DNA of 64,000 nt from Candidatus Saccharimonadota bacterium (GTDB taxonomy: Bacteria; Patescibacteriota; Saccharimonadia; Saccharimonadales; SZUA-47). The notes below the pieces were generated by a model. It was not told the origin of the DNA, ran no database searches, and saw only the letters and a program-made list of their open reading frames with translations. Of the stretch, positions 2,983 through 64,000 are shown in pieces; the stretch's first letter is position 1, and every line of letters begins with the position of its first letter. The position numbers and the translations under genes were made by a program. The DNA is taken from assembly GCA_016700315.1 (NCBI GenBank), contig CP065013.1, positions 641,449-705,448 of the forward strand, read 5' to 3'.

Positions 2983-5685
2983 ATGCAGAAAAAATCAGTT
3001 TGGCAGCGTTTCGGAATCTTCTTTTATGATAAGTGGCGCTATACCTCATTGCTCATAGCTGTGGTAGCCGGTTTTGGTTTAGTCGCTTACACGACAATGA
3101 TGCGTAGGGAAGGGTTTCCTTCTGTTGAAATACCTGTCGGGTTTGTACAGGTGGTTTCGCTTGGGAGCGACGCCAAATCTAATGATCAGACCTTCGCGTT
3201 GCCGATAATCGAAGCCGCTAAACAAGCTAATGGTTTCAAAAAAGTCCAAGCTTCAAGTAGTGAACAGGGTAGTGCCGTTAGCATTACATTTAAAGACGGT
3301 ACAGATGTTCAATCGGAGCTAAATAAGCTTGAGGCAGGGCTGAAAGACAAATTACCGCAAAATGGCGCTCGGGTTGTTTATGTCAAAATCAATGCTAGTA
3401 AGTTTACGCCTGAGGGCGATGATTTACTAGTCAGCGTTCATGACGAATCATCTGATGCTGATGCGGTCGACAAAAAAGCAGCAGAGTTAGCGTCAATGAT
3501 CAAAAGTGCTGGTTTAAGTCAGGTTAAAGACGTCCATAATTTTCCTTCATTTGAGCGAAATGTTAACCCCGTAACTGGGGAGTCAAAGATTAGCCAAGTT
3601 AGGTTCGACAGATTCTATGATCAATCAAGCGATAAGTTCCTAACCTCTACACTAGTTGGAGTGACAGGGGTGGACAAGGCAGACCAACTAAAGCTTTATG
3701 ATCAGGTAAATGAGTTCCTGCACTCCGCAAGAGTCAAGGACGCAAATATAGATGGTGAGATCGCGCTTAGCTTTGCTGAGAATATTCGCGAGCAGATATC
3801 AGGGCTTCAACGAAACTTACTTGAAGGTTTAGCGGTTGTGCTACTTGTCAGCTTCATATTGATATCATTTAGAAGCTCAATCGTAACCGCTCTTTCCATG
3901 ACGATAACTGTGCTTGGTACCGTCGCCGTACTATATGCAATTGGCTATAGTCTAAATACGATCACACTGTTTTCGCTGGTGCTTTGCCTGGCACTGATAG
4001 TTGATGACACGACGATTATGGTAGAAGCAATTGATGCAGGCTTCAAAAAAGGCAAAAAATATCGCGATACGGTGCTAGAGGCTATTGGCAAGGTTATCCG
4101 CGCTTCCGCAACCGGGACACTGGCCACGATGTTGGCTTTTGCGCCGATGCTTTTTATTGGTGGCATACTAGGTAAATTCATCAAGGCCATACCTGTAACA
4201 ATAATCACTAGTCTTGGTGTAAGCCTGCTGGTGTCATTTATCTTTATTCCGCTATTAAAACGAGCGACATACGGCAAAATAATAAAGCATAAGAAAAGGG
4301 AGTTTCACCCAGCCGGTAAAATCGAAGAAGCTCTGGGCAATAGACTGTCGTCTACGCTCCGTTGGTCGGATCAAACTAGGCAAAGGCGCATACTAATGCG
4401 TCTTGGCGCTGTCATGGTCGGGCTTTCGTTCTTAGTGGCTGGCGGTCTAATATTTTCAAAAGTTAAGTTCAATATTTTTCCTAGCCCTAAAGACGGAACA
4501 GAAATTGTCGTTACGGCAAAAGTCAAGAACTCAGAAGCAGCTTCTATAGATTCAACTTCTGCAGTGACAGACCGTTCCTTATTGCTAATAAAAGACGTTT
4601 TAGGCGATGACCTAAGACATCTATCTTTAGTTGGTAACAGTGGCAGTGCCTCCTCTCAAGGTTACGGCGCGAACATCAGGCTATCGCCAATGAACGAGCG
4701 AAAGACTGGTTCGGTGGATTTGTCTCGTAAGCTTGAGACAGAGTTGAACGCAAGCGTACCAGAAATGTTTTTCAAGGTTACGCCTCAGGGAGCCGGTCCT
4801 CCTCCGGGCAGCTTTAGTGTTCAAGTAAATGCCGACAATGAACAGCAGGCCTATGTCTTGGCTAATGATGTGAAAAAGTTCCTCGAGACTACTTCAATCA
4901 AGCGACCTGATGGCAGTGAGGCTAAGTTTATTGAGTCTAGTGTGACACCATCGGTGATAGTTACTCGTAGTGGCAACCAAAGAGTGGTAACTGTAGATGC
5001 CAGGTTCAATGCTGATGACACCTCGGCATTGGTACAGCTGGGGCAAAAGCTAGTTGAGGACAAATATACGGCTGGCTACATTAAGTCGATTGGGGCAGAG
5101 CAGTCAAACATTTCCTTTGATTTTGGTTTCGAAGAAGAAAACCAGGAATCATTCGCCTCAATGGGTAAAGCCGCAGGGCCTTTGTTTCTAGCGATGTTCT
5201 TGATCATGGCGATTCTATTTAGGAGCTTGTTGCAGCCAATCTTGATTCTAACAGCTCTGCCTTTTGCCTTCTTTGGTGTAGCGGCTGGGCTATATTTAAC
5301 CAAAAATGAAATTAGCTTTTTCTCGATGCTTGGAGTTTTCGCGCTAATTGGGATTAGCCTTAACAACACGATCCTGCTAACCGACTATGCCAATCATTCC
5401 AGAGACAAGGGCCTAAAGCCTTCAGAAGCGATGGCTGCAGCCATCAAAGAACGTTTACGGCCTCTCCTCACCACCAGTATCACTAGTGTCTTGGCGCTTT
5501 TGCCGCTGGCGCTTAACGACCCATTCTGGGAAGGTTTAGCTTATGCGCTGATCTTCGGTTTGATATCTAGTACGCTTTTGGTGCTTCTGGTCTTCCCATA
5601 CTTTTACCTAATTGATGAGTCATTCAATAGCATTCTGGGCAGAGTTTTTAGGAAAGTCTTAAGGCACAAAACCAGAAAAGCTTAG
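2983..5685 (+). CDS. RND-superfamily efflux permease (AcrB-like, 900 aa)
   Basis: Two-fold pattern of one TM, a large loop and five TMs. Motifs LALIVDDTTIMVEAI and LIGISLNNTILLTDY are typical of RND TM4/TM10 regions. No adjacent membrane-fusion or outer-membrane partner. Confidence 0.7.
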   Translation: MQKKSVWQRFGIFFYDKWRYTSLLIAVVAGFGLVAYTTMMRREGFPSVEIPVGFVQVVSLGSDAKSNDQTFALPIIEAAKQANGFKKVQASSSEQGSAVSITFKDGTDVQSELNKLEAGLKDKLPQNGARVVYVKINASKFTPEGDDLLVSVHDESSDADAVDKKAAELASMIKSAGLSQVKDVHNFPSFERNVNPVTGESKISQVRFDRFYDQSSDKFLTSTLVGVTGVDKADQLKLYDQVNEFLHSARVKDANIDGEIALSFAENIREQISGLQRNLLEGLAVVLLVSFILISFRSSIVTALSMTITVLGTVAVLYAIGYSLNTITLFSLVLCLALIVDDTTIMVEAIDAGFKKGKKYRDTVLEAIGKVIRASATGTLATMLAFAPMLFIGGILGKFIKAIPVTIITSLGVSLLVSFIFIPLLKRATYGKIIKHKKREFHPAGKIEEALGNRLSSTLRWSDQTRQRRILMRLGAVMVGLSFLVAGGLIFSKVKFNIFPSPKDGTEIVVTAKVKNSEAASIDSTSAVTDRSLLLIKDVLGDDLRHLSLVGNSGSASSQGYGANIRLSPMNERKTGSVDLSRKLETELNASVPEMFFKVTPQGAGPPPGSFSVQVNADNEQQAYVLANDVKKFLETTSIKRPDGSEAKFIESSVTPSVIVTRSGNQRVVTVDARFNADDTSALVQLGQKLVEDKYTAGYIKSIGAEQSNISFDFGFEEENQESFASMGKAAGPLFLAMFLIMAILFRSLLQPILILTALPFAFFGVAAGLYLTKNEISFFSMLGVFALIGISLNNTILLTDYANHSRDKGLKPSEAMAAAIKERLRPLLTTSITSVLALLPLALNDPFWEGLAYALIFGLISSTLLVLLVFPYFYLIDESFNSILGRVFRKVLRHKTRKA

Positions 5686-5965
5686 AAATACGCGAACCAG
5701 TTGCTTAAAATGTACAGCGCCTGCAGGTAAGATGACAAGAACGATATAAGTCAGTTAAGTGAAATAGATTAGATGCTTGTTATTCATCAAAACGCCTGAC
5801 ATTTGCTGGAACCGTGCAAATACTAAGATACGACAAGTTGTACAACTGTTACTTTTCCCGAATGGAATTGTGTACGACTTTGAAACTGGTTTTGGAACCG
5901 CAGAAAAGATAAAATCTTATCTGTTAATAGAAAAAATGACGGATAATTCCGTCAAAAATTCTGAT

Positions 5966-6131
5966 TTGTTTATCTCACGGAGAATACTTTGTATAATCCG
6001 CCCGTTTGCCCTACTTCGCTAAAGCTTTGTAGAGCGGGGGATTAGCGAACTCCTTCGGAGTTCAAGATTTACACTGTAAATCCGCCAAGATAAAAACCCC
6101 AGGATAAATCCTGAGGTTCATATCTTGGTGA
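5966..6131. repeat. 166-bp direct repeat, copy B (distal from tRNA-Glu)
   Basis: 165/166 identical to 7190-7355. Contains a 14-nt copy of the tRNA-Glu 3' end (ATCTCACGGAGAAT on the + strand, 5972-5985). Confidence 0.9.
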
Positions 6132-6276
6132 ACTATGTTAAGTCGAAATCGAACGCAATCTGTACTGAGCTACTTGAAGTATACAGCTACATGAGAGCTA
6201 TAACAGCGATGGATAACATTCTCTTGCAGAGTAGAACCTACAGTATATCTTAGAGCTTGTCTTTCAACACTCTCAA

Positions 6277-28423: not shown

Positions 28424-28769
28424 TGGAGGAGCTGGCGGGTACCGCCCCCGCGTCCGTCTGTTAACTTATTGGATGACTACAAGCTTAGTTTGTTTAATTT
28501 TCTTTCCTTAAGTTAACTCTTAACAAACAAAATGTTAGCTAAAGGGCAACTTGATAATCTTAGCTTTACTCCTCAAATAGTGGAGCAAAGAGCGTTCAGA
28601 AAATTTGGCGCTAATAATTCTCTATCTGACGTCGAAAATATAGCGGCTGTCTAAATAATTAGGCAGCTTGTGCAGCGAACTGGCGAGCATTAAGTATGCT
28701 GTCAATTGCGCTAGCTAACTTAGATTTTGCATCTAGTTTTTTGATCCGGCTAAGGTGCAGATCAGCCCC
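28424..28769 (-). ncRNA. ssrA: tmRNA (ssrA)
   Basis: Minus strand starts GGGGCTGA. It ends GGACGCGGG-GGCGGTA-CCCGCCAGCTCC-T-CCA (compare E. coli GGACGCGGGUUCAACUCCCGCCAGCUCCACCA). The 5'/3' ends form a 7-bp acceptor stem with G3:U70. An internal frame ends ...NARQFAAQAA-TAA (stop at 28659-28661). A hairpin plus T-run terminator follows. Confidence 0.75.
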
Positions 28770-28978
28770 GCTTGCCATTCCAACTTATTAAACTAACGTC
28801 GAGCTTAAATTCAGCCCCTAGTCGTATGCTGCGCACTATCAATCGTCAAGAGCTTTGATATTGTACCCTTGCACACTCCTCTCAAGTTTACGAAATATCG
28901 CAAAAAATGAGAATAGTTTTATTATAGCACAAAGCTTGAGCAATTTCAAAAATAGAAAGTTTCTGGTACTTTAGAGGA

Positions 28979-39407: not shown

Positions 39408-40850
39408 ATGAAAAAAGCATACTACGTTACAACTTCTATACCATATGTGAATGGCGACCCTCACATTGGTTTTGGCATGGAGATTATCCAAGCTGATGTA
39501 CTGGCACGCTATGCCAGGCAGCAGGGTAATGAGGTGCTATTCTCCACCGGAACAGATGAACACGGCACAAAAGTAGCCGAAAAGGCGATCGAGGAAAACA
39601 AAGACGTTGTTGAATTTGTACAAGAAAAGTCTGACAGTTTTAGAGAGCTATGCAAAGCGCTGAACATCAGCAATGATCGCTTTATTCGTACCACTGACAA
39701 AGGTCATGAGCAGCGCTCGCAGATTATCTGGCAGAATCTAAAAAAAGGCGACATTTACAAAGGTAAGTACGTAGGTTGGTATGATGTTCGACAGGAGGAA
39801 TTTGTCACCGAGAGCCAGGCCGATCCAGAACGTATGAAGCCCGATCATCCTCAAGCCTACCGCAAACTCGAAGAAGAAAACTACTTCTTTAAGCTCAGTG
39901 CCTACACCGAAGAAGTTAAGCAAGCCATTAAAAGTGGTAAGTTTGAGATTATCCCTCAAAAACGCCGTAATGAGATTTTGGCAGTGCTAGAGAAAGGCTT
40001 AGAAGACATTAGTGTGTCTAGGCCAAAAGACAAGATAAGTTGGGGTGTGCCTGTGCCGGGTGATGACACCCAAGTAATGTACGTTTGGTTTGAGGCGCTG
40101 ATGAACTACATCACGGTACTTGGTTACCCGGAATTCGATGATTTTAAGAGGTTCTGGCCAGCCAACGTGCAAGTAATCGGCAAAGATATTATTCGTTTTC
40201 ATGCGGCGATTTGGCCTGCAATGCTACTGAGTCTTGGACTTAGTTTACCTAAAAAGCTTTATGTTCACGGATTCATAAATGTTGACGGCCAAAAAATGAG
40301 CAAAAGTATAGGCAATGTTATTGCACCAAAAGAGATCCTTGGTAAGTACGGCGTAGATACATACCGCTACTTTTTCCTACGCCACACTAGCAGTAGTGAC
40401 GACGGTGATTTTACATGGGACAAGTTGGCTAAGGCTTACAACGGCGAACTGGCTAACGAACTTGGGAATGCTGTTAGCCGTGTGGCAAGCATGATAACGC
40501 GTTACCAAGCAGGCGTGATAGGCGACGTGCCAGAAAGCAAGCACGATCGTCGTGAGTATGACGCAGCAATGGAAAAATGCCAATTCGACATTGCGCTCTC
40601 GGAGGTTTGGGAGCAAGTTCGGGGTCTAAATCAGTTTATCGACGAAACCAAGCCCTGGGTGATAGCAAAGGAGCAAGATCCGGAGCATCTACAAGATGTA
40701 CTGGCGCAGGCCGTCAGCGATCTGCTACAGGTAGCTGAGCTATTGGTACCGTTCATGCCAGACACAGCAAGCAAGATTGAGCATATTTTTGTTAAAGGCG
40801 TAGTGCGCATGCCGAAAGAGAATTTATTCCCAAGACTTGAAATCGGGTGA
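39408..40850 (+). CDS. metG: methionyl-tRNA synthetase (short form)
   Basis: PYVNGDPHIGF (HIGH), QKMSKSIGN (KMSKS), 480 aa. Confidence 0.9.
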   Translation: MKKAYYVTTSIPYVNGDPHIGFGMEIIQADVLARYARQQGNEVLFSTGTDEHGTKVAEKAIEENKDVVEFVQEKSDSFRELCKALNISNDRFIRTTDKGHEQRSQIIWQNLKKGDIYKGKYVGWYDVRQEEFVTESQADPERMKPDHPQAYRKLEEENYFFKLSAYTEEVKQAIKSGKFEIIPQKRRNEILAVLEKGLEDISVSRPKDKISWGVPVPGDDTQVMYVWFEALMNYITVLGYPEFDDFKRFWPANVQVIGKDIIRFHAAIWPAMLLSLGLSLPKKLYVHGFINVDGQKMSKSIGNVIAPKEILGKYGVDTYRYFFLRHTSSSDDGDFTWDKLAKAYNGELANELGNAVSRVASMITRYQAGVIGDVPESKHDRREYDAAMEKCQFDIALSEVWEQVRGLNQFIDETKPWVIAKEQDPEHLQDVLAQAVSDLLQVAELLVPFMPDTASKIEHIFVKGVVRMPKENLFPRLEIG

Positions 40851-41147
40851 GTTGATAGTTGATAGAAGAGACAAGAAGCAAGAGACAAGAGATAAGACGC
40901 AAGAGTCATGAGCCAAGAGCCAAGAGCCAAGAGCCAAGAGCTAGGGACTAGGGTCTAGGGTCTAGGGTCTAGCAGGTATTACCCCGTACCCTGTACTGCG
41001 TACCCCGTACCTCCTAGGGACTAGGGTCCAGGGTCTAGGGACCAGTTTATAGTTTATAGTTAATACTTGATACTATCTTTGTTTAGAATTTAGTGCTTAG
41101 GATTTAGAATTTATGCTAACTACTTGCTACTTTCTACTAACTACTTT
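40851..41147. repeat. heptamer-mosaic element A (abutting runs of 7-nt tandem repeats)
   Basis: Runs: GTTGATA x2; AGAGACA-like x7; GCCAAGA x4; CTAGGGT/CTAGGGA x5; CCGTACC-like x5; TAGGGNC x4; TTTATAG x2; TTAGAAT-like x4; CTACT-type x4. Starts 1 nt after the metG stop. Confidence 0.9.
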
Positions 41148-41170
41148 TAAATGTCAGGAGGGCGCTATAG

Positions 41171-45474: not shown

Positions 45475-46143
45475 GTGGAAAAAGTCGATTTCATACTACC
45501 CTTAAGCGTAGCGACACCAACTGATTTGGGACGGTTGTTACGTGAGGCTGAGTCTCTACACGATTTTCTAGAGCAAGCTGCAATCCGTAAGACAGGCGAA
45601 CCGATGAAGATGCCTAAGACTAGCCGAATGCTAGACGAACTAATGCAGACCAACAAAATGAACGGATTACAAAGTACAGAACGCCAAAAACTGATTAAAT
45701 GGCTAACCGCAATTAAGAAAAAAGCCCCAGTTGTACATATTAGTTTTGGCGCTGACCCTAGCCCAGTATTTCTACAAAAACTAGTAGCTTGGTTCCGCCA
45801 AAATATTCATCAATTCTTGATGATTCGGGTCGGTTTGCAGCCAAACATAGGTGCAGGTTGTATGATCAGGACCAACAATAAGGTTTTTGATATGAGCCTG
45901 AGGCAATATTTCAAGAAGCACTATCAGTACTTCGTCGATCATCTGCACGCTGTTATGGAAGATCCCAAGTCGAGCCAAGAGTCACCAGCCACCAGCCAAC
46001 AGCTAACAGCCGACGGCCAACGGCCACCAGCCGACGGCCAACAGCCACCGGCCAGCAGTCACCTGCCAACAGCCGACGGCCAACAGCAACCGGTCGATAG
46101 TCAGCAGTCGTCGGTAAACAGTAAACAAGGTACTAAAAAGTGA
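45475..46143 (+). CDS. F-type ATPase subunit delta (OSCP)-like with a heptamer-repeat-encoded C-terminal tail
   Basis: [22 protein letters not shown]...[31 protein letters not shown] fits the delta C-terminal domain pattern (..vDpsliGG..i..g....D.S....L). The last ~55 aa are 7-aa periodic. Confidence 0.55.
45968..46135 (+). repeat. in-frame heptamer array (~23 units, CCAACAG/CCGACGG type) inside the delta-like gene
   Basis: CCAAGAG TCACCAG CCACCAG CCAACAG CTAACAG CCGACGG CCAACGG CCACCAG CCGACGG CCAACAG ... TAAACAG TAAACAA. Confidence 0.9.
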
Positions 46144-47570: not shown

Positions 47571-47693
47571 GAGAATAAAGAGTATTGAGTATAGAGACAG
47601 CAAGAAGGTTGAATTTTCAATTTTCAATTCTCAATTCTCAATTTTCAACAACTTACGTCTATCTACCATCTACCATCTACCATCTGCTACTTT
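47571..47693. repeat. heptamer-mosaic element B between atpA and atpG
   Basis: TTTTCAA/TTCTCAA x5, CTACCAT x3 and related 7-mers fill the 144-nt intergenic gap. Confidence 0.85.
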
Positions 47694-52912: not shown

Positions 52913-53288
52913 GGACGAGTTTATTTAAGAGCCAAGATTAGGTTTGAGGTTATAGGTTAGAGGTTATAGTGATTAGAGCTACGGACTAGTAGTTAGTAGT
53001 TGGTAGTTAGTAGTTGGTAGTTAGTAGTTAGTAGTTAGCAAATATTACCCCGTACCCTGTACTGCGTACCCCGTACCTCCTAGGGCCTAGGGACGAGTTT
53101 ATAGTTTATAGTTGATGGTTTATGGAAGAGCCGTGAGGCAAGAGACAAGACGCAAGAGTCATGAGCCAAGAGCTAGGGACTAGGAGCTAGGGTCTAGCGA
53201 ATACTACCCCGTACCCCGTACTGCGTACCGTCTAGGGACTAGGGTCTAGTTTCGAATTTCGTCCTCACTCCTCACGACTCACTACAAT
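52913..53288. repeat. heptamer-mosaic element C (~54 heptads)
   Basis: Runs of NNAGGTT x4; TAGTAGT/TGGTAGT x7; CCGTACC-like x4; CCTAGG x2; TTATAGT x3; AGAGNCA x6; GGGACTA-like x4; GTACCCC x3; CTAGGGN x2; ACTCCTC-like x3. Shares 43 identical nt with element A. Confidence 0.9.
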
Positions 53289-53300
53289 CCTGTGGATAAG

Positions 53301-53309
53301 TGCTATAAA
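53301..53309 (+). promoter_or_regulatory. possible extended -10 (TGCTATAAA) for P2
   Basis: The same TGCTATAAA nonamer, preceded by CTGTGGATAA, occurs upstream of P3 (55133-55141). Confidence 0.3.
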
Positions 53310-53405
53310 ATATCAAAATTAGCTTGCAATGCCCAAAACGCTCGTGCTAGACTACAGCCGTTAGTTACAAAAACTAAAAAACAAAATAAAAAAAGGAGAC
53401 CCCTT

Positions 53406-54686
53406 ATGACAAGTACGAAAAACTTCGTACGTCGCAATACTTTTGCGGCCGTTGCGGCGATGTTTGTCTGTGCAGCAATGCTACCGGCACTGCTTTCACG
53501 CCGCGCCAATGCTGCTGTTCAGATGACTGAGCGGCAAATAAAACTATCAACATCTAAAGTAAGCGCAACAGATGTTACGCACACAGTAAGCTTCAAGGTC
53601 GCTACGACTGGAGCCGTGCAAGGTATCGTTGTTGATTATTGTACTAGCCCGCTAGTAGATACATCATGTACTGCTCCGACAGGTTTGGATACCAAAGCGC
53701 CTACAACCTTGGTTCTTGCTAACCAATCAGGTATTTCAGGCTTTTCGATCGTAACAGGCAGCTCTAGCTCCAACAAGGTAGTATTAACTAATGGTTCTGG
53801 CGGATCTATTTCAGCTGGAACAACAGTCAGCTTCGATCTTGGATCTAGTGGCGGTACAGACGGAGAAACCAACCCTTCAACTAATGGTAGTTTCTATGCT
53901 CGTATTGTAACTTATGCCACTGCGGCTGGTGCAACAGGTTACGTATCTAACGCCATCAATACCGGTGGTACGGCTGTTGACGCTGGCGGTGTAGCCATGA
54001 GCACAGCTAACCAACTTACCGTTAACGCTCGCGTTCAGGAAGTCTTGGTCTTCTGTGTTGGTACTGATGACGCTAACGCAGCTAACGATTGTTCAGACAT
54101 TTCTGGTACGACCGTTGACCTTGGAGTAGTTCAAAGCGGCACGCCGAGTATTTCCCCTGTTGCAACAAGTAGCGGTGGTAACAATAAGAATGGTCTAGCC
54201 ATGATACGTACAAACGCCGTCAACGGTGTAGTAGTGGATTACTTTGCAGAAGCCGTAACTGGCGATAGTGGTTCAACCCACATGGGTGCGCTGCGTGTAT
54301 CTGGTTCAACCTGTACTGGCGACGGTACAATTGCTACTGGTAGCAAAACTGACCAATGTTTTAACAGCTCAGGAACAACTCAAGCAGTCTTTGGTACGAG
54401 TGACGAAGGTTTCGGTATGACCTCATCCAGTGTTGATACAACAAATGGTACTACTACTAACTTAGTGCGTGACACTGAGTATGATGGTGACGGCACTAAC
54501 GGTGCTGGTAATGGTTGGGCATGGGCTCAAACTACTCCAGATCGTCTAGCCAGCTCCACAGCTTCAGGTGTTAAAGTTGTAGACGACGAAATGCTGATCT
54601 TGCGCTTTGCTGCTCAGGCAGCTGTAACGACTCCAACTGGTCAATACGGCGTAACAAGCACTTACGTAGCAACCTCTAGCTTCTAA
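53406..54686 (+). CDS. secreted surface protein P2 (variable N-domain plus conserved C-domain)
   Basis: ATG at 53406, 8 nt after AGGAG. Signal peptide ...RRANA/A. N-terminal strand RQIKLSTSKVSATDVTHTVSF and Cys pairs. C-terminal GQYGVTSTYVATSSF. Confidence 0.7.
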   Translation: MTSTKNFVRRNTFAAVAAMFVCAAMLPALLSRRANAAVQMTERQIKLSTSKVSATDVTHTVSFKVATTGAVQGIVVDYCTSPLVDTSCTAPTGLDTKAPTTLVLANQSGISGFSIVTGSSSSNKVVLTNGSGGSISAGTTVSFDLGSSGGTDGETNPSTNGSFYARIVTYATAAGATGYVSNAINTGGTAVDAGGVAMSTANQLTVNARVQEVLVFCVGTDDANAANDCSDISGTTVDLGVVQSGTPSISPVATSSGGNNKNGLAMIRTNAVNGVVVDYFAEAVTGDSGSTHMGALRVSGSTCTGDGTIATGSKTDQCFNSSGTTQAVFGTSDEGFGMTSSSVDTTNGTTTNLVRDTEYDGDGTNGAGNGWAWAQTTPDRLASSTASGVKVVDDEMLILRFAAQAAVTTPTGQYGVTSTYVATSSF

Positions 54687-54703: not shown

Positions 54704-54735
54704 AAAAGCTCCGCGAATTAATGCGGAGCTTTTTA
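54704..54735 (+). terminator. rho-independent terminator after P2
   Basis: AAAAGCTCCGC GAATTAAT GCGGAGCTTTT followed by TAT. Confidence 0.7.
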
Positions 54736-54749
54736 TGTGTATGCGTTTA

Positions 54750-55098
54750 GCTAATAGGGGTATAGGACGAGTTTATAGTTTATAGTTGATAGTTGATAGA
54801 AGAGCCAAGATTAGGTTAGAGGTTATAGGAAGAGCCAAGATTAGGTTAGAGGTTTATGGAAGAGACAAGATTAGGTTAGAGGTTAGAGGTTATAGTGATT
54901 AGTAGGACTACGGACTAGTAGTTAGTAGGTAGTAGTTAGTAGGTAGCAAGTATTACGCCGTACCGCGTACCTCGTACCACGTACCGACTAGGGACTAAAG
55001 TCTAGGGAACAGGGTCTATTTTAGAATTTAGTGCTTTGGATTTAGGATTTTATACTTCATGCTTGCTACCAACTACCATCTACCAACTTACCTCATTA
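54750..55098. repeat. heptamer-mosaic element D (contains a 3 x 30-nt higher-order repeat at 54801-54890)
   Basis: GTTTATA x2; GTTGATA x2; AGAGCCAAGATTAGGTTAGAGGTT(A)TAGGA x3; GTAGTTA/GTAGGTA x4; GTACCNC x5; CTAGGGA-like x4; GGATTT-type; CTACCA x3. Confidence 0.9.
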
Positions 55099-55132
55099 CT
55101 GTGGATAAAGGGTTGCGCTTAAGCTTAAAACT

Positions 55133-55141
55133 TGCTATAAA
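55133..55141 (+). promoter_or_regulatory. possible extended -10 (TGCTATAAA) for P3
   Basis: Conserved with 53301-53309. Confidence 0.3.
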
Positions 55142-55255: not shown

Positions 55256-56506
55256 ATGAATAAAACTAACGCCCTCAGTAAGAGGGTGCAACTGCTCGCT
55301 TTTGCGGGCCTGATGGTTGCTGCTGCAATTCTGCCGGCATTTGCAAAAATGCGCGTAGAAGCTTATGCACAGCCAAGTGAAAGGTCGATTAATATATCGA
55401 CTTCAGAAGCGGGTGCGACTGACGTGACTTATACGGTTTCGTTCAAGCCTGCGACTACAATTACAGCACAAGGTATTGTGGTAGAAATTTGCGATAGTCC
55501 TTTAGTGGGAACAGTCTGTTCTTCGGCTGGTGGTTCAAGTGGCTTCGACAGTAACGAGGCGAACTTAGCAGTGACAGCTACAGGGCTAACTTTGGATGCG
55601 GCAACAGATACAAATACGATCGTACTCACGGGTAGTGCGAGCCTCACAGCGGGCACAGCGTACACAATAACTCTCGGAAATACCGGCGGTAACGATGGCG
55701 TAACAAACCCATCTGCTGCAGGTAGCTTCTATGGAAGGATCATCACTTACACTAGCAGTGCGACTGCCGTGGCATACGATTCTTCTACAACGGGTGCAAA
55801 TAACCCTGGCGCTGCAACAGACGCTGGCGGTGTAGCCATGAGCACAGCTAACCAACTTACCGTTAACGCTCGCGTTCAGGAAGTATTGGTCTTCTGTGTT
55901 GGTACTGATGACGCAAACGCAGCTAATGACTGTTCAGATATAACTGGTAATACAGTAGATTTGGGAGTTGTTCAGGCGGGTGCTTTGAGCACTTCGCCAG
56001 TAGCTACAAGTCAGGGCGGCAACAACAAGAATGGTCTAGCCATGGTGCGTACAAACGCTGTAAATGGTGTGACTATAGACTACTTTGCTGAAGCAGTAAC
56101 CGGCGACACAGGCTCAACCCACATGGGTGCGCTCCGTGTCTCTGGAGCAACTTGTACTGGCGACGGTACCTTTGCTACAGGTAGCAAAACCGACCAATGT
56201 TTTAACAGTATGGGGCTTACCCAAACTGCGATTACTGACGAAGGCTTTGGTATGACGCTTGACCCTGTTGACACCTCTAACGGTACGACAGCCAACCTAA
56301 CTCGCGATACTCAATACGACGGTGTCGCAGGCGGATTTGCTTGGTCTGCAACCACAACCGATACTATTGCTAGCTCAACGGCATCTGGCGTAAAAGTTGT
56401 TGACGATGAGTTGATGACTTTGCGCTTTGCTGCACAAGCTGCTGTAACAACCCCAACCGGTCAATATGGTGTTACGAGCACCTATATTGCTACAGCATCT
56501 TACTAA
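55256..56506 (+). CDS. secreted surface protein P3 (paralog of P2)
   Basis: Signal peptide ...VEAYA/Q. The C-terminal ~230 aa are roughly 85-90% identical to P2 (a 65-nt identical DNA run starts at 53989/55820). The N-terminal ~170 aa are divergent. Confidence 0.75.
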   Translation: MNKTNALSKRVQLLAFAGLMVAAAILPAFAKMRVEAYAQPSERSINISTSEAGATDVTYTVSFKPATTITAQGIVVEICDSPLVGTVCSSAGGSSGFDSNEANLAVTATGLTLDAATDTNTIVLTGSASLTAGTAYTITLGNTGGNDGVTNPSAAGSFYGRIITYTSSATAVAYDSSTTGANNPGAATDAGGVAMSTANQLTVNARVQEVLVFCVGTDDANAANDCSDITGNTVDLGVVQAGALSTSPVATSQGGNNKNGLAMVRTNAVNGVTIDYFAEAVTGDTGSTHMGALRVSGATCTGDGTFATGSKTDQCFNSMGLTQTAITDEGFGMTLDPVDTSNGTTANLTRDTQYDGVAGGFAWSATTTDTIASSTASGVKVVDDELMTLRFAAQAAVTTPTGQYGVTSTYIATASY

Positions 56507-56580: not shown

Positions 56581-57636
56581 ATGAGACATAGGTCTAGTAA
56601 TGCGGTTGTGGTATTTGGGCGGGCAGGAATCTGTTTCCTGCTCGCTCTTTTAATTGTCAATTTTGGCCCGCGCGCCGACGCTGCTGATTTTCAGAACAGG
56701 TCGATAAGGTTGTCTTCGCCATCTGCGGGAGAGGCTTCTAATCACACCTTTAGCTTTACGAACCCGACCGTTTCGGTAGTTGGATCAATCGTATTACAAT
56801 ATTGCGCCAATAGTCCGCTTTTTATTGATCCTTGCGCCGCGCCAGCAGGGCTTGATGCGACAGCAGCTAGTTTGGCCAGCCAAACCGGCAATGTCGGATT
56901 CGTAAAGGACGCCTCGAGTACAGCCAGTCGTATCGTACTTTCCAGAGCGCCGGCCGGCAGCCTGAGCATCAATAGCAGCTATACCTTAAATAATGTGATC
57001 AACCCAACCCTTGCCGACCAAACATTCTTCGGACGCATAAGCATGCACGCAAGTAGTGACGGCAGCGGGCCAGCAATCGATCAAGGTGCGGTAGCATTTT
57101 CGACCAGTGGGTCGTTTAATATAGGCGCCTACGTCCCGCCTTTTCTGATCTTTTGTGTAGGTGTTACTGTGGCACCTGATTGTTCGTCTACCACAGGTAA
57201 TTTAATAGATTTTGGCGTACTGGCACCTACTATAACGGCTTTGGCAACTACGCAGTTTGCTGGAGCAACAAACGATTTTACAGGCTACCAAGTTTTTGTA
57301 AACGGCCAAACTATGACATCAGGTAACAATGCTATTCCAGAGCTGACTATTCCAGGATCAAGCAGCCAGGGCGTTAGTCAGTTTGGGCTAAATCTGCGCT
57401 TAAACAACGCGCCAGTAGTTGGCAATAACCCATCCGGAAGCGGCACAGCAGTGGTTGATCCTAAATATAACACTTCTAATCTTTTTGCTTTTGGCGATGG
57501 CGATAAGGTCGTTAGTTCGCCCATCACAACTGATTTCAATGTCTTCACCCAAAGCTATTTAGTTAACGTCTCAGCCTTACAAAAGCCAGGCGTTTATGCG
57601 ACAACTCTTTTATATACAGCTGTTGCTAGTTTTTGA
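56581..57636 (+). CDS. secreted surface protein P4 (distant paralog of P2/P3)
   Basis: Signal peptide ...PRADA/A. RSIRLSSPSAGEASNHTFSF, YCANSPLFIDPCAAPAGL, LIFCVGVTVAPDCSSTTGNLIDFGVL, C-terminal PGVYATTLLYTAVASF. Confidence 0.7.
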   Translation: MRHRSSNAVVVFGRAGICFLLALLIVNFGPRADAADFQNRSIRLSSPSAGEASNHTFSFTNPTVSVVGSIVLQYCANSPLFIDPCAAPAGLDATAASLASQTGNVGFVKDASSTASRIVLSRAPAGSLSINSSYTLNNVINPTLADQTFFGRISMHASSDGSGPAIDQGAVAFSTSGSFNIGAYVPPFLIFCVGVTVAPDCSSTTGNLIDFGVLAPTITALATTQFAGATNDFTGYQVFVNGQTMTSGNNAIPELTIPGSSSQGVSQFGLNLRLNNAPVVGNNPSGSGTAVVDPKYNTSNLFAFGDGDKVVSSPITTDFNVFTQSYLVNVSALQKPGVYATTLLYTAVASF

Positions 57637-57660
57637 GTAGTAAGTCCGCCTAAGTCGGAC

Positions 57661-57922
57661 TAGGAACGAGGGGGGAGTTAGCGGTTAGTAGCAAGTAGTT
57701 AGTAGTAAGTAGCAAGCGTTAAATTCTAAATTCTAAAATAGACCCTGGACCCTGGACCCTAGTCCCTGGTCCCTAGCTCTTGGCTCTACTTGAACAGTAC
57801 GCAGTAAGAGGTACGCGGTACGGGGTAATATTTGCTAACTACCAACTACCAACTACCAACTACCAACTACTAACTACTGGTCCATTGCCCTAATCACTCT
57901 AACCTATAACCTCTAACCTAAT
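57661..57922. repeat. heptamer-mosaic element E (reverse-complement orientation relative to A, C and D)
   Basis: Contains GGTACGGGGTAATATTTGCTAACTACC, the reverse complement of the GGTAGTTAGCAAATATTACCCCGTACC module in C, plus GACCCTG/GTCCCTA, AACTACC x5 and TAACCT runs. Confidence 0.9.
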
Positions 57923-58017
57923 AGCAAGAAACAGTTGTGAATTTTATAATGCTGCTTGCGCTTTTTCTAACTCTCTATTATGCTAGTGGTAAGTATCATT
58001 TTAAAGTGAGGGAAAGA

Positions 58018-58992
58018 ATGAAAAAAACAAAACAAATTATTGCAGCATTGTTCATGGCTTTTGGCTTGTTCATACAGCCAGCAATAGTACTAGCACAACA
58101 ACAAGCACAAACAGGTAGTGGCTTGAGCATTTCGCCAACTAGGACCGATCTAGTGGTGGATGCTGGAACTTCTGCTGATTTAACAATATCAATCAAGAAC
58201 GTAACTGGTGGCGGCGTTACAGCCAAAGCTTTTGTCAATGATTTCCAGAGCGACAACGTGTCTGGCGAGCCAAAGTTAATTGTTGATCCTAACCAACAAG
58301 TCGTAGGAAGTATCAAGAAGTTCTTGAATGGATTAAACGATGTGCCACTCGCTAAAGGCGAATCAAAAGATGTCAAAATGAGTGTTAATATTCCTGCTGA
58401 TACGCCCCCAGGCGCTTACTATGGGGTTATACGCTTCCAAGCTGTTCCTGTCGATCAGGCAGCTCCTGGTGATGGCCAGGTGGCGTTGACAGCAAGTGTT
58501 GGTTCGATTGTTCTGATTGAAGTCCCAGGAAATATTACTGAGAAAATCCGCGTTAACAAAGTCGGTGCTTATGCTGGCAATGTCTCCCGCAGTATCATGA
58601 CTGCAAAGCCTACAGAAGTTGGTATTGAGATCGAAAACCTCGGTAACGGCTTTGCTAAGCCATTCGGTCGTGTAGAAGTTAAGAACATGTTTGGTAAGCT
58701 AGTAAAAGCTTATGAGCTAAACAACTCTAACCCTCGTGGAGTGGTCTTGCCAGAGTCTAAACGCTTGTTCAAGGATTCTGTGGAGGGCGTTAATCTTCCT
58801 GGCCGCTACACAATATCGTCAAACATCTCATACGGTAGAGGCGGAGATATCATTAGTGCTACCAAGACATTCTGGTATCTGCCATTCTGGTTTGTGGCAA
58901 TTTTGCTTGTAGTGCTGTTCGCGCTAATCTTCAGCGCATGGCTACTTTACCGACGCTATATCTCGCAGTCAGTAACAAAGCGTAAGAAATAG
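58018..58992 (+). CDS. DUF916/DUF3324-like cell-surface protein with a C-terminal TM anchor (P5)
   Basis: Signal peptide. LSISPTRTDLVVDAGTSADLTISIKNV..., PGAYYGVIRF, LPGRYTISSNISY, then TM FWFVAILLVVLFALIFSAWLLY plus RRY. This is the architecture of CscA-type proteins in Firmicute WxL loci. Confidence 0.55.
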   Translation: MKKTKQIIAALFMAFGLFIQPAIVLAQQQAQTGSGLSISPTRTDLVVDAGTSADLTISIKNVTGGGVTAKAFVNDFQSDNVSGEPKLIVDPNQQVVGSIKKFLNGLNDVPLAKGESKDVKMSVNIPADTPPGAYYGVIRFQAVPVDQAAPGDGQVALTASVGSIVLIEVPGNITEKIRVNKVGAYAGNVSRSIMTAKPTEVGIEIENLGNGFAKPFGRVEVKNMFGKLVKAYELNNSNPRGVVLPESKRLFKDSVEGVNLPGRYTISSNISYGRGGDIISATKTFWYLPFWFVAILLVVLFALIFSAWLLYRRYISQSVTKRKK

Positions 58993-61345: not shown

Positions 61346-62389
61346 ATGAAAAAGGTGTTCGTAGGGCTATCTGGTGGTGTTGATAGTTCCGTTGCGGCTT
61401 TGCTTTTAAAAGAGCAGGGCTACGACGTGGTCGGCGCGCATATGAAAAACTGGACTAAAAGTTTGCCGGGTTTTGCTTGTCCTTGGCGGGAGGATTATCA
61501 GGACGCCAAAAGAGTCGCCGTGCAGTTAGGTATACCATTTGAGTTATTTGATTTTGAGCAGCAGTACTTCGACAAGGTTGTGCAGTATATGCTCGATGAG
61601 TTTAAGCGAGGTGTTACACCAAACCCTGATGTCATGTGTAATCAAGAAATTAAGTTTAAGCTGTTTTTAGACATGGCGCTTGACCGTGACGCAGATTTTA
61701 TAGCTACAGGACACTACGCAGCCATCAGCCATCAGCCTTCGGCCGTCAGTTTAAGTATGGCTAAGGACGCGAACAAAGATCAAACCTACTTTCTGTACCG
61801 CGTAACGGAAAAGGCGCTCAAAAAGACTCTTTTTCCGCTGGGAGATCTAACTAAGAAAGAGGTGCGAGGAATTGCCAAAAAGGCCGGGCTAGTTACGGCC
61901 GACAAAAAAGAATCTATGGGCATTTGTTTTGTCGGTAAAGTTGGCATCAAGGAGTTTTTGAGCCAATACATCGAAACTAAACCCGGTAAGATAAAAGACC
62001 AGAACGGTGTGGTTCTTGGTGAGCATGACGGCGCAATTTTTTACACAATTGGGCAACGTAACGGGCTCGGTGTTGGCGGCGGTTTGCCGTATTACGTTAC
62101 GGGTAAGAATATGACTAAAAACGAAGTATACGTAACTAGCCAACTTGATGACCCTAAACTGTGGCTTAGTAAAGTTCGTCTAAATAGTATTCATCTCATC
62201 AACCATAAACTACCAACTATCAACCATAAACCCTTGCTCGTTCGGACACGCCATCGCGGCCCCCTTGTGCCTGCCAAGCTAGAAGGCAATAAGCTTATTT
62301 TCGATGAGCCGCAAAGAGCACTTACTCCAGGCCAATCTGCAGTTTTTTACAACGGTCAAATCTGCCTCGGCGGCGGAATAATTACTTAG
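61346..62389 (+). CDS. mnmA: tRNA 2-thiouridine(34) synthase
   Basis: VGLSGGVDSSVAA (PP-loop), NPDVMCNQEIKF, ATGHYA, KDQTYFLY, MGICFVG. Confidence 0.9.
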   Translation: MKKVFVGLSGGVDSSVAALLLKEQGYDVVGAHMKNWTKSLPGFACPWREDYQDAKRVAVQLGIPFELFDFEQQYFDKVVQYMLDEFKRGVTPNPDVMCNQEIKFKLFLDMALDRDADFIATGHYAAISHQPSAVSLSMAKDANKDQTYFLYRVTEKALKKTLFPLGDLTKKEVRGIAKKAGLVTADKKESMGICFVGKVGIKEFLSQYIETKPGKIKDQNGVVLGEHDGAIFYTIGQRNGLGVGGGLPYYVTGKNMTKNEVYVTSQLDDPKLWLSKVRLNSIHLINHKLPTINHKPLLVRTRHRGPLVPAKLEGNKLIFDEPQRALTPGQSAVFYNGQICLGGGIIT

Positions 62390-62416: not shown

Positions 62417-64000
62417 ATGACAGCGCAGGAAATTAGAAACAAGTATTTAGATTTTTTTTCTAAACGTGGACATGCCCAAATTCCGCGTGCTTTGTTGGTA
62501 CCATATAACGACCCAACTACTCTTTTTACTGGCTCCGGCATGCAGCCGCTAATTCAGTATTTGCTAGGCGAGCCTCATCCAGAAGGCACCAAATTAGTCG
62601 ATAGCCAGACTTGTCTTAGGGCTCAGGACATAGATGAGGTTGGTGACAACCGCCACACAACTTTCTTTGAAATGCTTGGTAATTGGAGTTTGGGCGACTA
62701 TTTTAAGGCCGAGCAGTTGCCTTGGTTTTTTGAATTTTTGACAGATGTGGTTGGCTTGGATCCGAACAAACTCTATGTCACGACTTTTATTGGTGATAAG
62801 GATAACGGGATCCCACGAGACACAGAAAGTGCTGAACTTTGGGCTGGATTGTTCAAGCAAAAAGGTATCGAGGCTAAAGCCGTCGAAATAGGCTCTGAAG
62901 CAGATGGCTACGCCAAAGGTATGCAAGGTGGCCGTATTTTTTATTATGACGCTAGCAAAAACTGGTGGTGCAGAGCTGGCAAAATTGGCGATATGCCGGC
63001 AGGTGAGCCCGGGGGGCCAGACAGCGAAGTTTTCTACGAATTTGACTTTGTAGAACATGATCCAAAATGGGGCCAAAACTGTCACCCAAACTGTGACTGT
63101 GGTCGCTACATGGAAATTGGTAACAGTGTTTTCATGGAGTATTTACGCACAGAGAAAGGCTTTGAAAAGCTACCGAAGCAAAATGTTGACTTCGGTGCTG
63201 GCCTGGAGCGTATCGCCGCTGCTGCGATAAACAGTCCAGACATGTTCAAGATCAGCGTCATCTGGCCAATAGTCGAGAAACTCGAAGCTATCAGCGGTGT
63301 GAAATATGATTTTACTCCCGGTGATTTGGGATACGAGAAGATGCCGGATTGCTGGCTAGATACTATGAAGTCGATGCGTGTGATCGCTGATCATTTGCGG
63401 GCAGCAACTTTCTTGGCTGTCGATGGAGTAAGCCCGAGCAACAAAGAGCAGGGTTATGTGATGCGCCGACTCTTGCGCCGTGCTATTCGCTTTGCATTTG
63501 ATCTGGGTATTGAACAGAACTTCTTAGAACAGATCGTGCCAGTTATTGCCGATATTTACCATGCAGATTTCCCGGAAGTTGCCGCCAATCGCCAGCAAGT
63601 TATCGAAACGCTAGTCAAGGAAGAAAAAGTCTTCCGCCAGACTCTAAGAAAAGGCCTGAAAGAGTTTGAGAAAATATTCCAATCGAGTCAAGAGTCAGGA
63701 GTCATGAGTCAAGGAGAAGCTCTGTTTAGGCTTTATGACACCTATGGTTTTCCTATTGAATTAAGCGTTGAGGAAGCTTCTAAACGAGGCATTGAATTAG
63801 AATCAGATTGGCGTGAGCAATTTGACGGCAAAATGGCTGAGCAAAAAGCGCGTAGTCAGACAGCGAGCAAGGGAGTGTTCAAAGGTGGGCTTGGTGGCCA
63901 AACCATGCAGCACAAGAAATACCACACGGCAACTCATCTAATGTATCAAGCGCTGCGCGATGTGCTTGGCGACCATGTTATTCAGCGCGGCAGTAACATT
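62417..64000 (+). CDS. alaS: alanyl-tRNA synthetase, 3' end outside window
   Basis: Hand-translated: MTAQEIRNKYLDFFSKRGHAQIPRALLVPYNDPTTLFTGSGMQ..., FEMLGNWSLGDYFK, GGPDSEVFYEF, GNSVFMEY. The frame is open to nt 64000 and is absent from the track because no stop lies in the window. Confidence 0.9.
   Translation, partial: MTAQEIRNKYLDFFSKRGHAQIPRALLVPYNDPTTLFTGSGMQPLIQYLLGEPHPEGTKLVDSQTCLRAQDIDEVGDNRHTTFFEMLGNWSLGDYFKAEQLPWFFEFLTDVVGLDPNKLYVTTFIGDKDNGIPRDTESAELWAGLFKQKGIEAKAVEIGSEADGYAKGMQGGRIFYYDASKNWWCRAGKIGDMPAGEPGGPDSEVFYEFDFVEHDPKWGQNCHPNCDCGRYMEIGNSVFMEYLRTEKGFEKLPKQNVDFGAGLERIAAAAINSPDMFKISVIWPIVEKLEAISGVKYDFTPGDLGYEKMPDCWLDTMKSMRVIADHLRAATFLAVDGVSPSNKEQGYVMRRLLRRAIRFAFDLGIEQNFLEQIVPVIADIYHADFPEVAANRQQVIETLVKEEKVFRQTLRKGLKEFEKIFQSSQESGVMSQGEALFRLYDTYGFPIELSVEEASKRGIELESDWREQFDGKMAEQKARSQTASKGVFKGGLGGQTMQHKKYHTATHLMYQALRDVLGDHVIQRGSNI

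Follow-up and report, generated by a model that had tools for sequence, protein, structure and literature searches.

A composite heptanucleotide repeat family in gene spacers of a Saccharimonadales genome

The window analysed here is a 64-kb stretch of the genome of a Saccharimonadales bacterium, and the element in question is the 376-nt spacer at positions 52913-53288, which separates two genes denoted P1 and P2. The neighbouring genes of the window are housekeeping ones, comprising metG, tatD, a cysteine-desulfurase-like gene, the ATP synthase operon, mnmA, alaS, and glycolytic genes. P2 is followed by its paralogue P3 and by ORF (open reading frame) 56581-57636, a 34% paralogue. MetRS homologues with a name are assigned to Candidatus Saccharimonadales or Saccharibacteria. 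A Pfam scan of P1, P2, P3, and ORF 56581-57636 returned no family. From the P1 stop codon to the motif CTGTGGATAAGTGCTATAAAAT (53290-53311), the spacer is comprised of successive 7-nt tandem arrays.

Heptad periodicity and module architecture

Tandem Repeats Finder (TRF) resolved eight arrays of period 7 or 14 in the P1-P2 spacer, with the units AGGTTAG, TAGTAGT (7.4 copies), TACCCCG (4.6), AGTTTAT (4), AAGAGCC (6.9), CTAGGGA, again TACCCCG (3.6), and TCCTCAC (3.1). The self-match at lag 7, calculated over 100 nt at a time, was 0.65-0.74, compared to the mean of 0.26 for the whole window. Adjacent heptads with at most one mismatch covered 74% of the 376 nt, while in 500 dinucleotide-preserving shuffles the coverage was 2% on average and 13% at maximum. 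The effect is specific to period 7, as periods 5, 6, and 8-12 covered at most 6% of the spacer. Hence, the description of the region as a heptamer mosaic in the initial annotation holds well. Its figure of ~54 heptads needs to be qualified, as it equals the length divided by seven; about 37-40 units lie in recognisable tandem runs, and the remainder are junctions or degenerate units. The array is reproduced by independent JGI and ENA assemblies (L031 and L036), which rules out an assembly artefact as its source. It is not a CRISPR array either, as the heptad units are contiguous and have no spacers between them.

By TRF and the lag-7 self-match, the window contains six strongly period-7 regions, all at 40.8-58 kb. 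Five are intergenic, and one lies in frame in an atpH-like ORF. The degenerate core pattern TAYTACSCCGTACCNNGTAC had five matches, with zero expected: two in 52913-53288 and one each in elements A, D, and, on the minus strand, E (Table 1). The region 52913-53288, which had been called the largest such element, is indeed the largest mosaic, because it holds two elements in tandem, units B and C.

The elements share the order of modules around the core TAYTACSCCGTACC / TAGCRRRTAYTACSCCGTACC. On the left, this order is (AGTTTAT/AGTTGAT)n - (AAGAGCC)n, followed by one of two alternative blocks, either (AAGATTA GGTTAGA GGTTATA)n - GTGATTAG..ACGGAC - (TAGTAGT)n or (CTAGGGT)n. On the right, it continues as TAGCRRRTAT-(TACCCCG)n - (CTAGGGN)n - (TTTAGAA)n - (CTAACTA/CTACCAA)n. 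The elements draw on eight or more unit families, namely AGTTTAT, AAGAGCC, GGTTAGA, TAGTAGT, TACCCCG, CTAGGGN, TTTAGAA, and CTAACTA. The families AGTTGAT, AGTTGGT, AGTTAGT, and GGTTAGA differ by one or two substitutions, and a few of the modules on the right are the reverse complement of modules on the left (CTAACTA and TAGTTAG; CTCACGA and GTGAGGC).

A repeat search aligned element A with both cores of the spacer. Positions 40970-41057 matched 53036-53123, at the first core, over 88 nt with 83% identity, and positions 40894-40996 matched 53119-53221, in the second half, over 103 nt with 76% identity. These colinear matches agree with the earlier remark that the second half reproduces the module order of element A. 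In addition, the junction of units B and C matched the start of element D (59 nt, 81%), and A matched D (31 nt, 94%). No single 7-nt register runs across an element: the two CTAGGG modules of A are out of phase, being 73 nt apart. As 73 is not a multiple of seven, the element is a composite of arrays and not one diversified array. The TTTAGAA module of element A (41082-41110) also contains a sigma-70-like match, TTTAGA-17-TAGAAT, oriented to tatD, and a weaker equivalent is present in D.

Table 1. Repeat elements, arrays, genes, and promoter features of the window
Feature	Coordinates	Strand	Description
Element A	40850..41150	+	Between metG stop and tatD ribosome-binding site; modules AGTTGAT, AAGAGCC x11, CTAGGGT x4, core, CTAGGGN x4, AGTTTAT x4, TTTAGAA x5, CTAACTA x4
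(AGCCAAC)x16 array	45973..46093	+	In-frame C-terminal tail of atpH-like ORF 45475-46143
Short arrays (AATTTTC)x5 + (ATCTACC)x3.6	47612..47685	+	atpA-atpG spacer
P1	52127..52912	+	261 aa; no Pfam match; no detectable paralogy to P2 (E = 0.08)
Unit B, mosaic	52913..53098	+	Starts at P1 stop codon, whose TAG belongs to the first unit; left modules GGACGAG-TTTAT lead, AAGAGCC, AAGATTA, (GGTTAGA/GGTTATA)x4, GTGATTAGAGCTACGGAC, (TAGTAGT/TGGTAGT)x7; right modules core TAGCAAATATTACCCCG-(TACCCNG)x4, (CTAGGGN)x2
Unit C, mosaic	53096..53288	+	Colinear with element A; left modules (AGTTTAT/AGTTGAT)x4, (AAGAGCC-like)x7, (CTAGGGN)x3; right modules core TAGCGAATACTACCCCG-(TACCCCG)x3.5, (CTAGGGN)x2.5, TTTCGAA TTTCGTC, (CTCACTC)x3
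CTGTGGATAA box	53290..53299	+	Reverse complement TTATCCACA is a perfect DnaA-box consensus
TGCTATAAA, extended -10-like	53301..53309	+	Abuts box; no good -35 upstream; read from sequence
Alternative P2 promoter candidate TTGCAA, 18 nt, TG-C-TAGACT	53324..53353	+	Candidate on sequence grounds only
P2	53406..54686	+	426 aa, predicted secreted or surface protein; 63% identity to P3
Element D	54760..55098	+	Between P2 terminator hairpin (54708-54734) and P3 box
P3 promoter region	55099..55141	+	Box 55099-55108, GGG, TTGCGC 55113-55118, 17 nt, TG-C-TATAAA 55133-55141
P3	55256..56506		P2 paralogue, 63% identity
Element E	57660..57925	-	Inverted copy, same module order, upstream of gene 58018-58992
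(GAGTCAA)x4.5 run in alaS	63685..63716	+	6-aa insertion (SSQESG..) relative to the AlaRS of L032

Empty sites in relatives, variable strains, and the box upstream of P2 and P3

Related genomes have the same gene neighbourhoods without the arrays. In L017, whose MetRS is 85% identical, the metG-tatD spacer is 10 bp long, compared to 320 bp in the window. The gene order atp operon - P1 - P2 - downstream paralogue(s) - mnmA is found in L032 (GCA_964536485.1), L033, whose contig stops within the gene after P2, and L035 (GCA_964610775.1); a further locus, L034, spans P2 through mnmA only. The P1-P2 spacers of L032, L033, and L035 are 168, 114, and 104 bp long, respectively, and contain the box and the promoter, but no array. 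The P2-P3 spacers of L032, which has two P2-type genes in tandem, and L033 (123 and 120 bp) also have no array, and the 1.4 kb following P2 in L035 contain neither a called gene nor an array. Period-7 arrays found by TRF cover 1.8% of the window and 0-0.2% of L032 and L033.

These observations do not agree with the proposal of the initial annotation that the array, the box, and the surface-protein paralogue form one duplicated module. Not only do the relatives hold P2-type genes, box, and promoter without arrays, but the element family is also present at metG-tatD and, in a shorter form, at atpA-atpG, with related runs in coding sequence. Moreover, P1 is not a detectable paralogue of P2 (Table 1).

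We further searched for the mosaic in sequence collections. The core pattern had four matches among the GTDB representative genomes, three of them chance-like and one a small unrelated heptamer run; the junction pattern had four matches in the JGI metagenomes, all by chance; and two patterns run against IMG/VR yielded one chance match and zero matches. As the scans yielded chance-like matches only, the mosaic appears to be restricted, by the sequences searched, to this species-level lineage. In the atpA-atpG spacer of L017 (8260-8436, called as a 58-aa ORF), we found other 7/21-nt repeats, AATGACT AAGGGCC AACTGTT. Judging from this pair of genomes, the repeats of this spacer seem to turn over completely between sister species.

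Within the lineage, we compared assemblies with identical or 99%-identical flanking proteins. The heptad copy number, singled out earlier as a feature to compare between strains, differs by 7-nt and 21-nt steps, and whole modules are replaced. At metG-tatD, the CCAAGAG unit is present in four, three, or two copies, and in L011, L013, and L014 the spacer is 87 bp shorter, the missing part including the core. In these three assemblies, a pair of CTAGGGACTAGGGTC direct repeats bounds a 73-nt deletion, through which the first CTAGGGT module and the core are lost. The P1-P2 spacer is exactly 21 nt, or three TAGTAGT units, shorter in L036 and has one GGTTNGA unit fewer in L022 and others. In L031, the GGTTAGA module is shorter, the TAGTAGT/TGGTAGT units stand in a different order, and the AAGAGCC module of unit C is replaced by an extra AAGTATTACCCCGTACCGA core and five CTAGGG units. 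In element D, between P2 and P3, L036 and L037 have a module replacement adding 41 nt, and L037 also a 7-nt deletion. The atpA-atpG arrays at 47612-47685 vary between strains as well. At the same time, P1 is 100% identical while the arrays vary, and the promoter and terminator flanks are invariant; in particular, the flanks in the P2-P3 spacer (terminator, box, promoter, and 5' untranslated region, UTR) are identical except for one G. Thus, the length and composition of the arrays are not invariant, and the changes are concentrated in the arrays. The empty sites in relatives and the polymorphism between strains together mean that the arrays are young, lineage-specific, and hypervariable.

Short-read contigs from Logan (L001, L012, L015, L016, and L022-L030) often stop 32-63 nt into the array following P1 or at other array edges, which is what a multi-copy repeat would produce. 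The elements thus break short-read assemblies, and, as they fragment them, will be under-represented in metagenome-assembled genomes; there is also a risk that annotation mistakes them for regulatory regions or small ORFs.

The CTGTGGATAA box occurs in exactly two perfect copies in the 64 kb, at 53290 and 55099, each followed by TGCTATAAA. The gap is 1 nt before P2 and 24 nt before P3, and because of this difference a single-box pattern with a gap of 0-6 nt matches only once. Therefore, the claim that the same box follows element D is correct insofar as CTGTGGATAA and TGCTATAAA recur upstream of P3, but these are two separable parts with variable spacing. Exact TGTGGATAA was found six times, all in one orientation, in ~117 kb formed by the window and five relative loci, four of which contain the P2/P3 region; about one occurrence would be expected by chance. 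In five cases, a gene of the P2/P3 type follows directly downstream, whereas the remaining copy stands 86 nt before an uncalled ATG in the gap following P2 in L035. The positions are 53291-53299 and 55100-55108 in the window, 8467 in L032, 8250 in L033, and 5920 and 7362 in L035, and the distance from the box to the -35 ranges from 1 to 30 nt among the window and the relatives.

Four further loci from Saccharimonadales have both the extended -10 TGnTATAAA and TGTGGATAA upstream of genes of the P2/P3 type, so that the conservation of the box, as initially annotated, extends beyond the window. In L033, the arrangement is TAAAAACTGTGGATAAAC...GCTTGTG-17-TGATATAAAT, and in L032 it is TTGTGGATAAC...TTGCTT-17-TGCTATAAAT. 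L035 has CTGTGGATAAACCTATTGCGC-17-TAGTATAAA before P2 and CTGTGGATAAATAGCTTGCAT-..-TGGTATAAG downstream of P2, ahead of the uncalled ATG, both arranged as in P3 of the window; L034 has a variant, CTGTGGAAAAAT...TGTATAAAA. For P2 itself, the alternative candidate at 53324-53353 resembles L032 in its placement relative to the box (box, 30 nt, TTGCTT-17-TGCTATAAAT). A consensus promoter scan called neither of the P2 candidates, TGCTATAAA at 53301-53309 or TTGCAA-18-TG-C-TAGACT.

As the array-free relatives keep both the box and the promoter, these are older than the arrays. The comparison of loci identifies the box and the extended -10 as the putative ancestral control region of the P2/P3 gene family, separable from the arrays. 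Separating the two pinpoints the TGTGGATAA box with the extended -10 as a candidate control element of a Saccharimonadales-specific surface-protein family. The box might be bound by DnaA acting as a transcription factor or by a dedicated regulator. Despite the perfect TTATCCACA, it does not mark a replication origin, because the cumulative GC skew rises monotonically across the window with no inflection; moreover, there is one perfect TTATCCACA per spacer. The TAG-rich repeats do not constitute a DnaA-trio, as their period is 7 and not 3, and the box is also upstream of P2/P3 orthologues in other species.

Origin and possible roles of the repeats

The elements do not show excess secondary structure. 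Relative to shuffles, z-scores of RNA folding for whole elements were +1.05, +0.04, and +0.89, and those of DNA folding for the five cores were +0.85, +1.47, +1.52, +2.09, and -0.89. As the sequences fold no better than shuffles and are, if anything, less structured, and Rfam has no match to the elements, a structured RNA or DNA is rejected. The Rfam scan of the window found only five tRNAs and a transfer-messenger RNA (tmRNA), with no match in the arrays. With z-scores from about 0 to +2 for RNA and DNA, palindromic hairpin-forming units typical of repetitive extragenic palindromic (REP) sequences and bacterial interspersed mosaic elements (BIMEs) are also absent. In a search for terminal inverted repeats, the inverted repeats found were internal module complementarity only, and no target-site duplication is visible when the filled and empty metG-tatD sites are compared. 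Hence, the elements do not qualify as MITEs (miniature transposable elements bounded by inverted repeats). The Pfam scan, which covered 30 ORFs of the window, found neither a transposase nor a REP-associated tyrosine transposase (RAYT). Of the operon-internal spacers, metG-tatD and atpA-atpG were scanned for intrinsic terminators, and neither had a predicted one; nor was any found between P1 and the array.

Canonical G-quadruplex (G4) motifs (G3N1-7 x4) occur three times in the 64 kb, with 0.3 expected, and all are in CTAGGGN modules, two in A and one in E. There are none in 52913-53288, where the CTAGGG modules have 2, 3, and 2.5 units, and none in element D. ViennaRNA with G4 energies placed no G4 in any minimum-free-energy structure. 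As a general explanation, G4 formation is rejected, since it applies to some modules and copies only.

Heptanucleotides are the commonest class of long simple sequence repeats (SSRs) in many bacteria, attributed to polymerase slippage (Mrazek et al., 2007, in the summary given by PMC4679880). The heptanucleotide short tandemly repeated repetitive (STRR) sequences of cyanobacteria (Mazel et al., 1990, as cited in PMC4679880 and PMC4692102) are, like the repeats described here, head-to-tail 7-nt units with several families per genome, mainly intergenic, dispersed, and polymorphic in copy number, which is attributed to slippage. Indeed, head-to-tail heptads, dispersed and mainly intergenic loci, and unit-number polymorphism between strains were all found in our case. 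By contrast, here a core that is not itself repeated is surrounded by at least eight unit families whose order is conserved, and it is this composite that is dispersed. The host has a reduced genome, unlike the large-genome cyanobacteria, and the units are unrelated to STRR1-3; the repeats are therefore not STRR in the strict sense, given the different unit sequences and a Saccharimonadales, not cyanobacterial, host.

Specific heptamer families of Nostoc and Xanthomonas, GGGNATC / GGGGA(C/T)T, form G-quadruplexes (PMC4692102). Similar to them, the CTAGGGN modules are G3N4 repeats, often of about four units, located between co-oriented ORFs and near stop codons. However, here G-tracts are confined to one module family, 52913-53288 has no four-tract motif, and G4 formation is hypothetical. 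TAACTGA direct repeats, known from marine Beggiatoaceae, cyanobacteria, and Bacteroidetes (PMC4679880), also form short, stop-codon-rich heptamer arrays of unknown function between many unrelated genes and sometimes in ORFs. These have a single unit, mostly in 2-6 copies, directly before start codons, whereas the mosaics described here measure 190-380 bp and are found either upstream of promoters or in the gaps between cistrons. The heptads TTTTGAT at the ctxAB promoter of Vibrio cholerae (bioRxiv 10.1101/2021.05.14.444153) share with our arrays the position immediately before a promoter and a copy number that varies by strain. On the other hand, they represent one unit at one locus, bound by known regulators, while our arrays belong to many unit families and occupy many unrelated loci, and no arrays are present at the orthologous promoters.

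Our literature search retrieved no paper tying heptamer or tandem repeats to Saccharibacteria or Patescibacteria. In enterobacteria, REP units are imperfect hairpin-forming palindromes mobilised by RAYT transposases, and BIMEs are their mosaics in operon spacers. Like these, the elements of the window are interspersed, strain-variable mosaics of short modules in extragenic operon spacers, in both orientations; unlike these, the arrays are direct repeats without excess folding, and no RAYT is found among the window ORFs scanned. Overall, compound heptanucleotide repeats are known as a kind, and it is the Saccharimonadales host that is unexpected.

Heptamer arrays were also observed in unrelated contigs. 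L005 (JBAYJJ010000013.1, an unrelated Patescibacteria group bacterium) has arrays of about four units in six consecutive spacers of co-directional genes (4044-6230), and the unit differs from spacer to spacer: AATTCAA, AATTTTG, CGTACAA, GTACGTT, AACATGT, and ATGATAC. (CTAGGGT)n runs of 3-9 units were found in 13 unrelated IMG/VR contigs (L039-L051) with the GC content of 30-62%. One of these, L046 (IMGVR_UViG_3300047678_000392, GC 62%), carries compound arrays of CCCCAGA, CCCTAGA, CCCCTAG, and AACAACT at 3780-3850 and 4455-4525, directly before start codons and inside an ORF, and another, L043, carries a 49-unit CTAACC(C) array.

In our view, the elements are probably, though by no means certainly, a lineage-specific, STRR-like composite heptanucleotide repeat family, for which copying or recombination would be the means of spread and slippage the source of change. 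The region 52913-53288 would then be two tandem copies of an interspersed composite repeat, each copy ~190-330 bp long. The family would have been copied into several non-coding spacers, in both orientations, by recombination, gene conversion, or a transposition-like process; since modules have been swapped, the simplest assumption is that copies recombined with, or converted, one another. Modules may expand and contract by replication slippage in 7-nt steps and be exchanged by recombination between copies, and we propose that near-identical strains carry different alleles because of these two processes. Copies would persist where they are harmless, that is, downstream of a stop codon or terminator but ahead of the promoter or ribosome-binding site that comes next. 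Coding copies may be tolerated in frame in protein tails, with 21-nt steps, as in the atpH tail, and also as the 6-aa insertion in alaS. At P2 and P3, the arrays are an addition, placed after the upstream stop codon or terminator and before the ancestral box and promoter region. The best-supported reading of their position next to these genes is that spacer was available there, and not that regulation was designed so in the ancestor. If expression is affected at all, this is probably a side effect, for instance of a 3' UTR or inter-cistronic spacer that is longer, unstructured, and terminator-free, or of a displaced upstream context. We infer both the slippage and recombination mechanisms and the near-neutrality of the copies. 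A young, rapidly evolving family that takes up about 2% of a 24-kb stretch, and that even lengthens an ATP-synthase subunit and AlaRS in frame, shows that the streamlined ~1-Mb genomes of Saccharibacteria, in which non-coding DNA is scarce, are not immune to repeat proliferation. The family also supplies markers by which strains differ naturally, and gives access to the rates of slippage and recombination in bacteria that are uncultivated.

Several points weigh against such a repeat family of little consequence. Its copy number and insertion sites are known for 64 kb of the genome only, and no transposase, terminal inverted repeats, or target-site duplications pointing to a copying mechanism were found in the window. 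Some of the differences between strains were read from metagenome assemblies of short reads, in which repeats may conceivably have collapsed; still, the shared direct repeats are only ~15 nt long, and independent assemblies agree (L011 = L013 = L014; L036 ≈ window). A non-coding repeat totalling 1.5 kb, tolerated within 24 kb of a ~1-Mb streamlined genome, is unexpected for junk and so leaves room for function. In addition, three of the five copies flank surface-protein genes, and the sigma-70-like matches provided by the TTTAGAA module (TTTAGA-17-TAGAAT) make a promoter-carrying role conceivable. There is a small chance that the mosaic is a functional, portable cis-module of ultrasmall episymbionts, serving as a heptad-phased scaffold for a DNA- or RNA-binding protein or, through TTTAGAA, as a weak promoter, and rewiring downstream expression. 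If so, its downstream targets would include surface-protein paralogues that mediate host contact, and slippage-driven allele switching would generate variation across the population, as a form of contingency regulation independent of frame or promoter spacing. A contingency (phase-variation) SSR of the usual type is rejected, as the array ends upstream of the box and of both candidate promoters, and the coding arrays change by 21 nt.

Each of the rival explanations conflicts with at least one tested feature. The initial annotation suggested that the array is an upstream regulatory or insulating region of the surface-protein paralogues, which would make it a platform for a regulator or a nucleoid protein, or else a buffer against read-through from P1, with the copy number tuning expression. 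This is consistent with B+C, D, and E all ending just before promoters of secreted or surface-protein genes, with the differences in the arrays between strains, with the lack of a terminator in the stretch from P1 to the array, and with the known use of heptad arrays before promoters as a regulatory device (TTTTGAT in V. cholerae ctxAB). Still, we regard it as unlikely. The family also resides inside housekeeping operons, at metG-tatD and atpA-atpG, and the orthologous P2/P3 loci hold the box and the promoter without an array. The minimum of eight unit sequences per element is hard to fit to one DNA-binding protein, and element E is inverted relative to its downstream gene. Moreover, unit changes happen in a stretch upstream of both the box and the -35, and thus leave the promoter spacing unaffected. 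Rather improbable, too, is a role at the RNA level, in which the arrays would act as unstructured, stop-codon-rich spacers or S1/CsrA/Csp-type tracts modulating translation initiation downstream or mRNA stability, as proposed for the TAACTGA repeats of Beggiatoaceae (PMC4679880). B+C, D, and E are upstream of predicted promoters and thus could be 3' UTRs at most, with E in the opposite orientation; the relatives do without arrays; and the array sequence and length are hypervariable. What such a role would account for is that the arrays in operons must be transcribed through, with no terminators predicted, that they fold less well than shuffled sequence, and that the elements end 20-60 nt before the ribosome-binding sites of tatD and atpG. 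The arrays of about four heptamers directly before start codons in L005 and L046 would also fit.

Even less probable, in our estimate, are non-B-DNA elements (G-quadruplex or i-motif) of the GGGNATC type, with (CTAGGGN)4 and (TACCCCG)4 as the active parts. All three canonical G4 motifs of the window, where 0.3 are expected, do fall into the CTAGGGN modules of A and E, these modules have four, four, and five units, in line with the four-unit preference reported in PMC4692102, and (CTAGGGT)n recurs in the 13 unrelated IMG/VR contigs. But canonical G4 motifs are absent from 52913-53288 and G-tracts from most modules, the minimum-free-energy structures given by ViennaRNA contain no G4 even when its energies are included, and one natural allele has lost the whole first CTAGGGT module and the core. 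The dispersal of copies in both orientations and the clean empty sites in relatives could also be produced by a non-autonomous transposable element, similar to a MITE, REP, or BIME and mobilised in trans by a transposase encoded elsewhere. The left ends have TAGGGACGAGTTTAT in common, two right ends have a partial inverted match, TCGTCC in unit C and CTCGTTCCTA in element E, and BIMEs are likewise mosaics in operon spacers. With no consistent terminal inverted repeats or target-site duplications, no hairpin-forming palindromic units, no transposase or RAYT among the 30 window ORFs scanned with Pfam, and an internal structure that is tandem-direct and not inverted, we give this explanation little credence.

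Heptamer runs in coding sequence and other observations

The heptamer tail of the atpH-like ORF is rich in Q, P, and A. In L022 and L023, this ORF has 21 nt fewer, corresponding to three heptads and seven amino acids, and the frame is kept. The atpH homologue of L017 has no heptamer tail and is 195 aa long, compared to 222 aa in the window. The run in alaS has the unit GAGTCAA, from a family shared with AAGAGTC/ATGAGCC of the mosaic. Because the unit is 7 nt long, only 21-nt steps keep the frame in the atpH and alaS repeats. In both atpH (the tail) and alaS (the insertion), a young nucleotide repeat is thus translated in frame into low-complexity peptide. In this they resemble the tandem repeats of Borgs, described as creating disordered protein segments (PMC9879509), but here the unit is 7 nt long and the genes are chromosomal genes of a bacterium.

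P2 and P3 share an identical block of 37 residues (P2 residues 196-233; DNA 53958-54257 and 55799-56098). The 100% identity of this block within the overall 63% suggests gene conversion between the tandem paralogues. A full-length tmRNA, missed by the ARAGORN scan of the window, is located at 28424-28818 on the minus strand (Rfam, 91.5 bits). Finally, weak period-7 runs are present in the mnmA ORF 61346-62389 (CAGCCAT x4.4, 61719-61749) and near the 3' end of mnmA (CATCAAC x5, 62197-62232).

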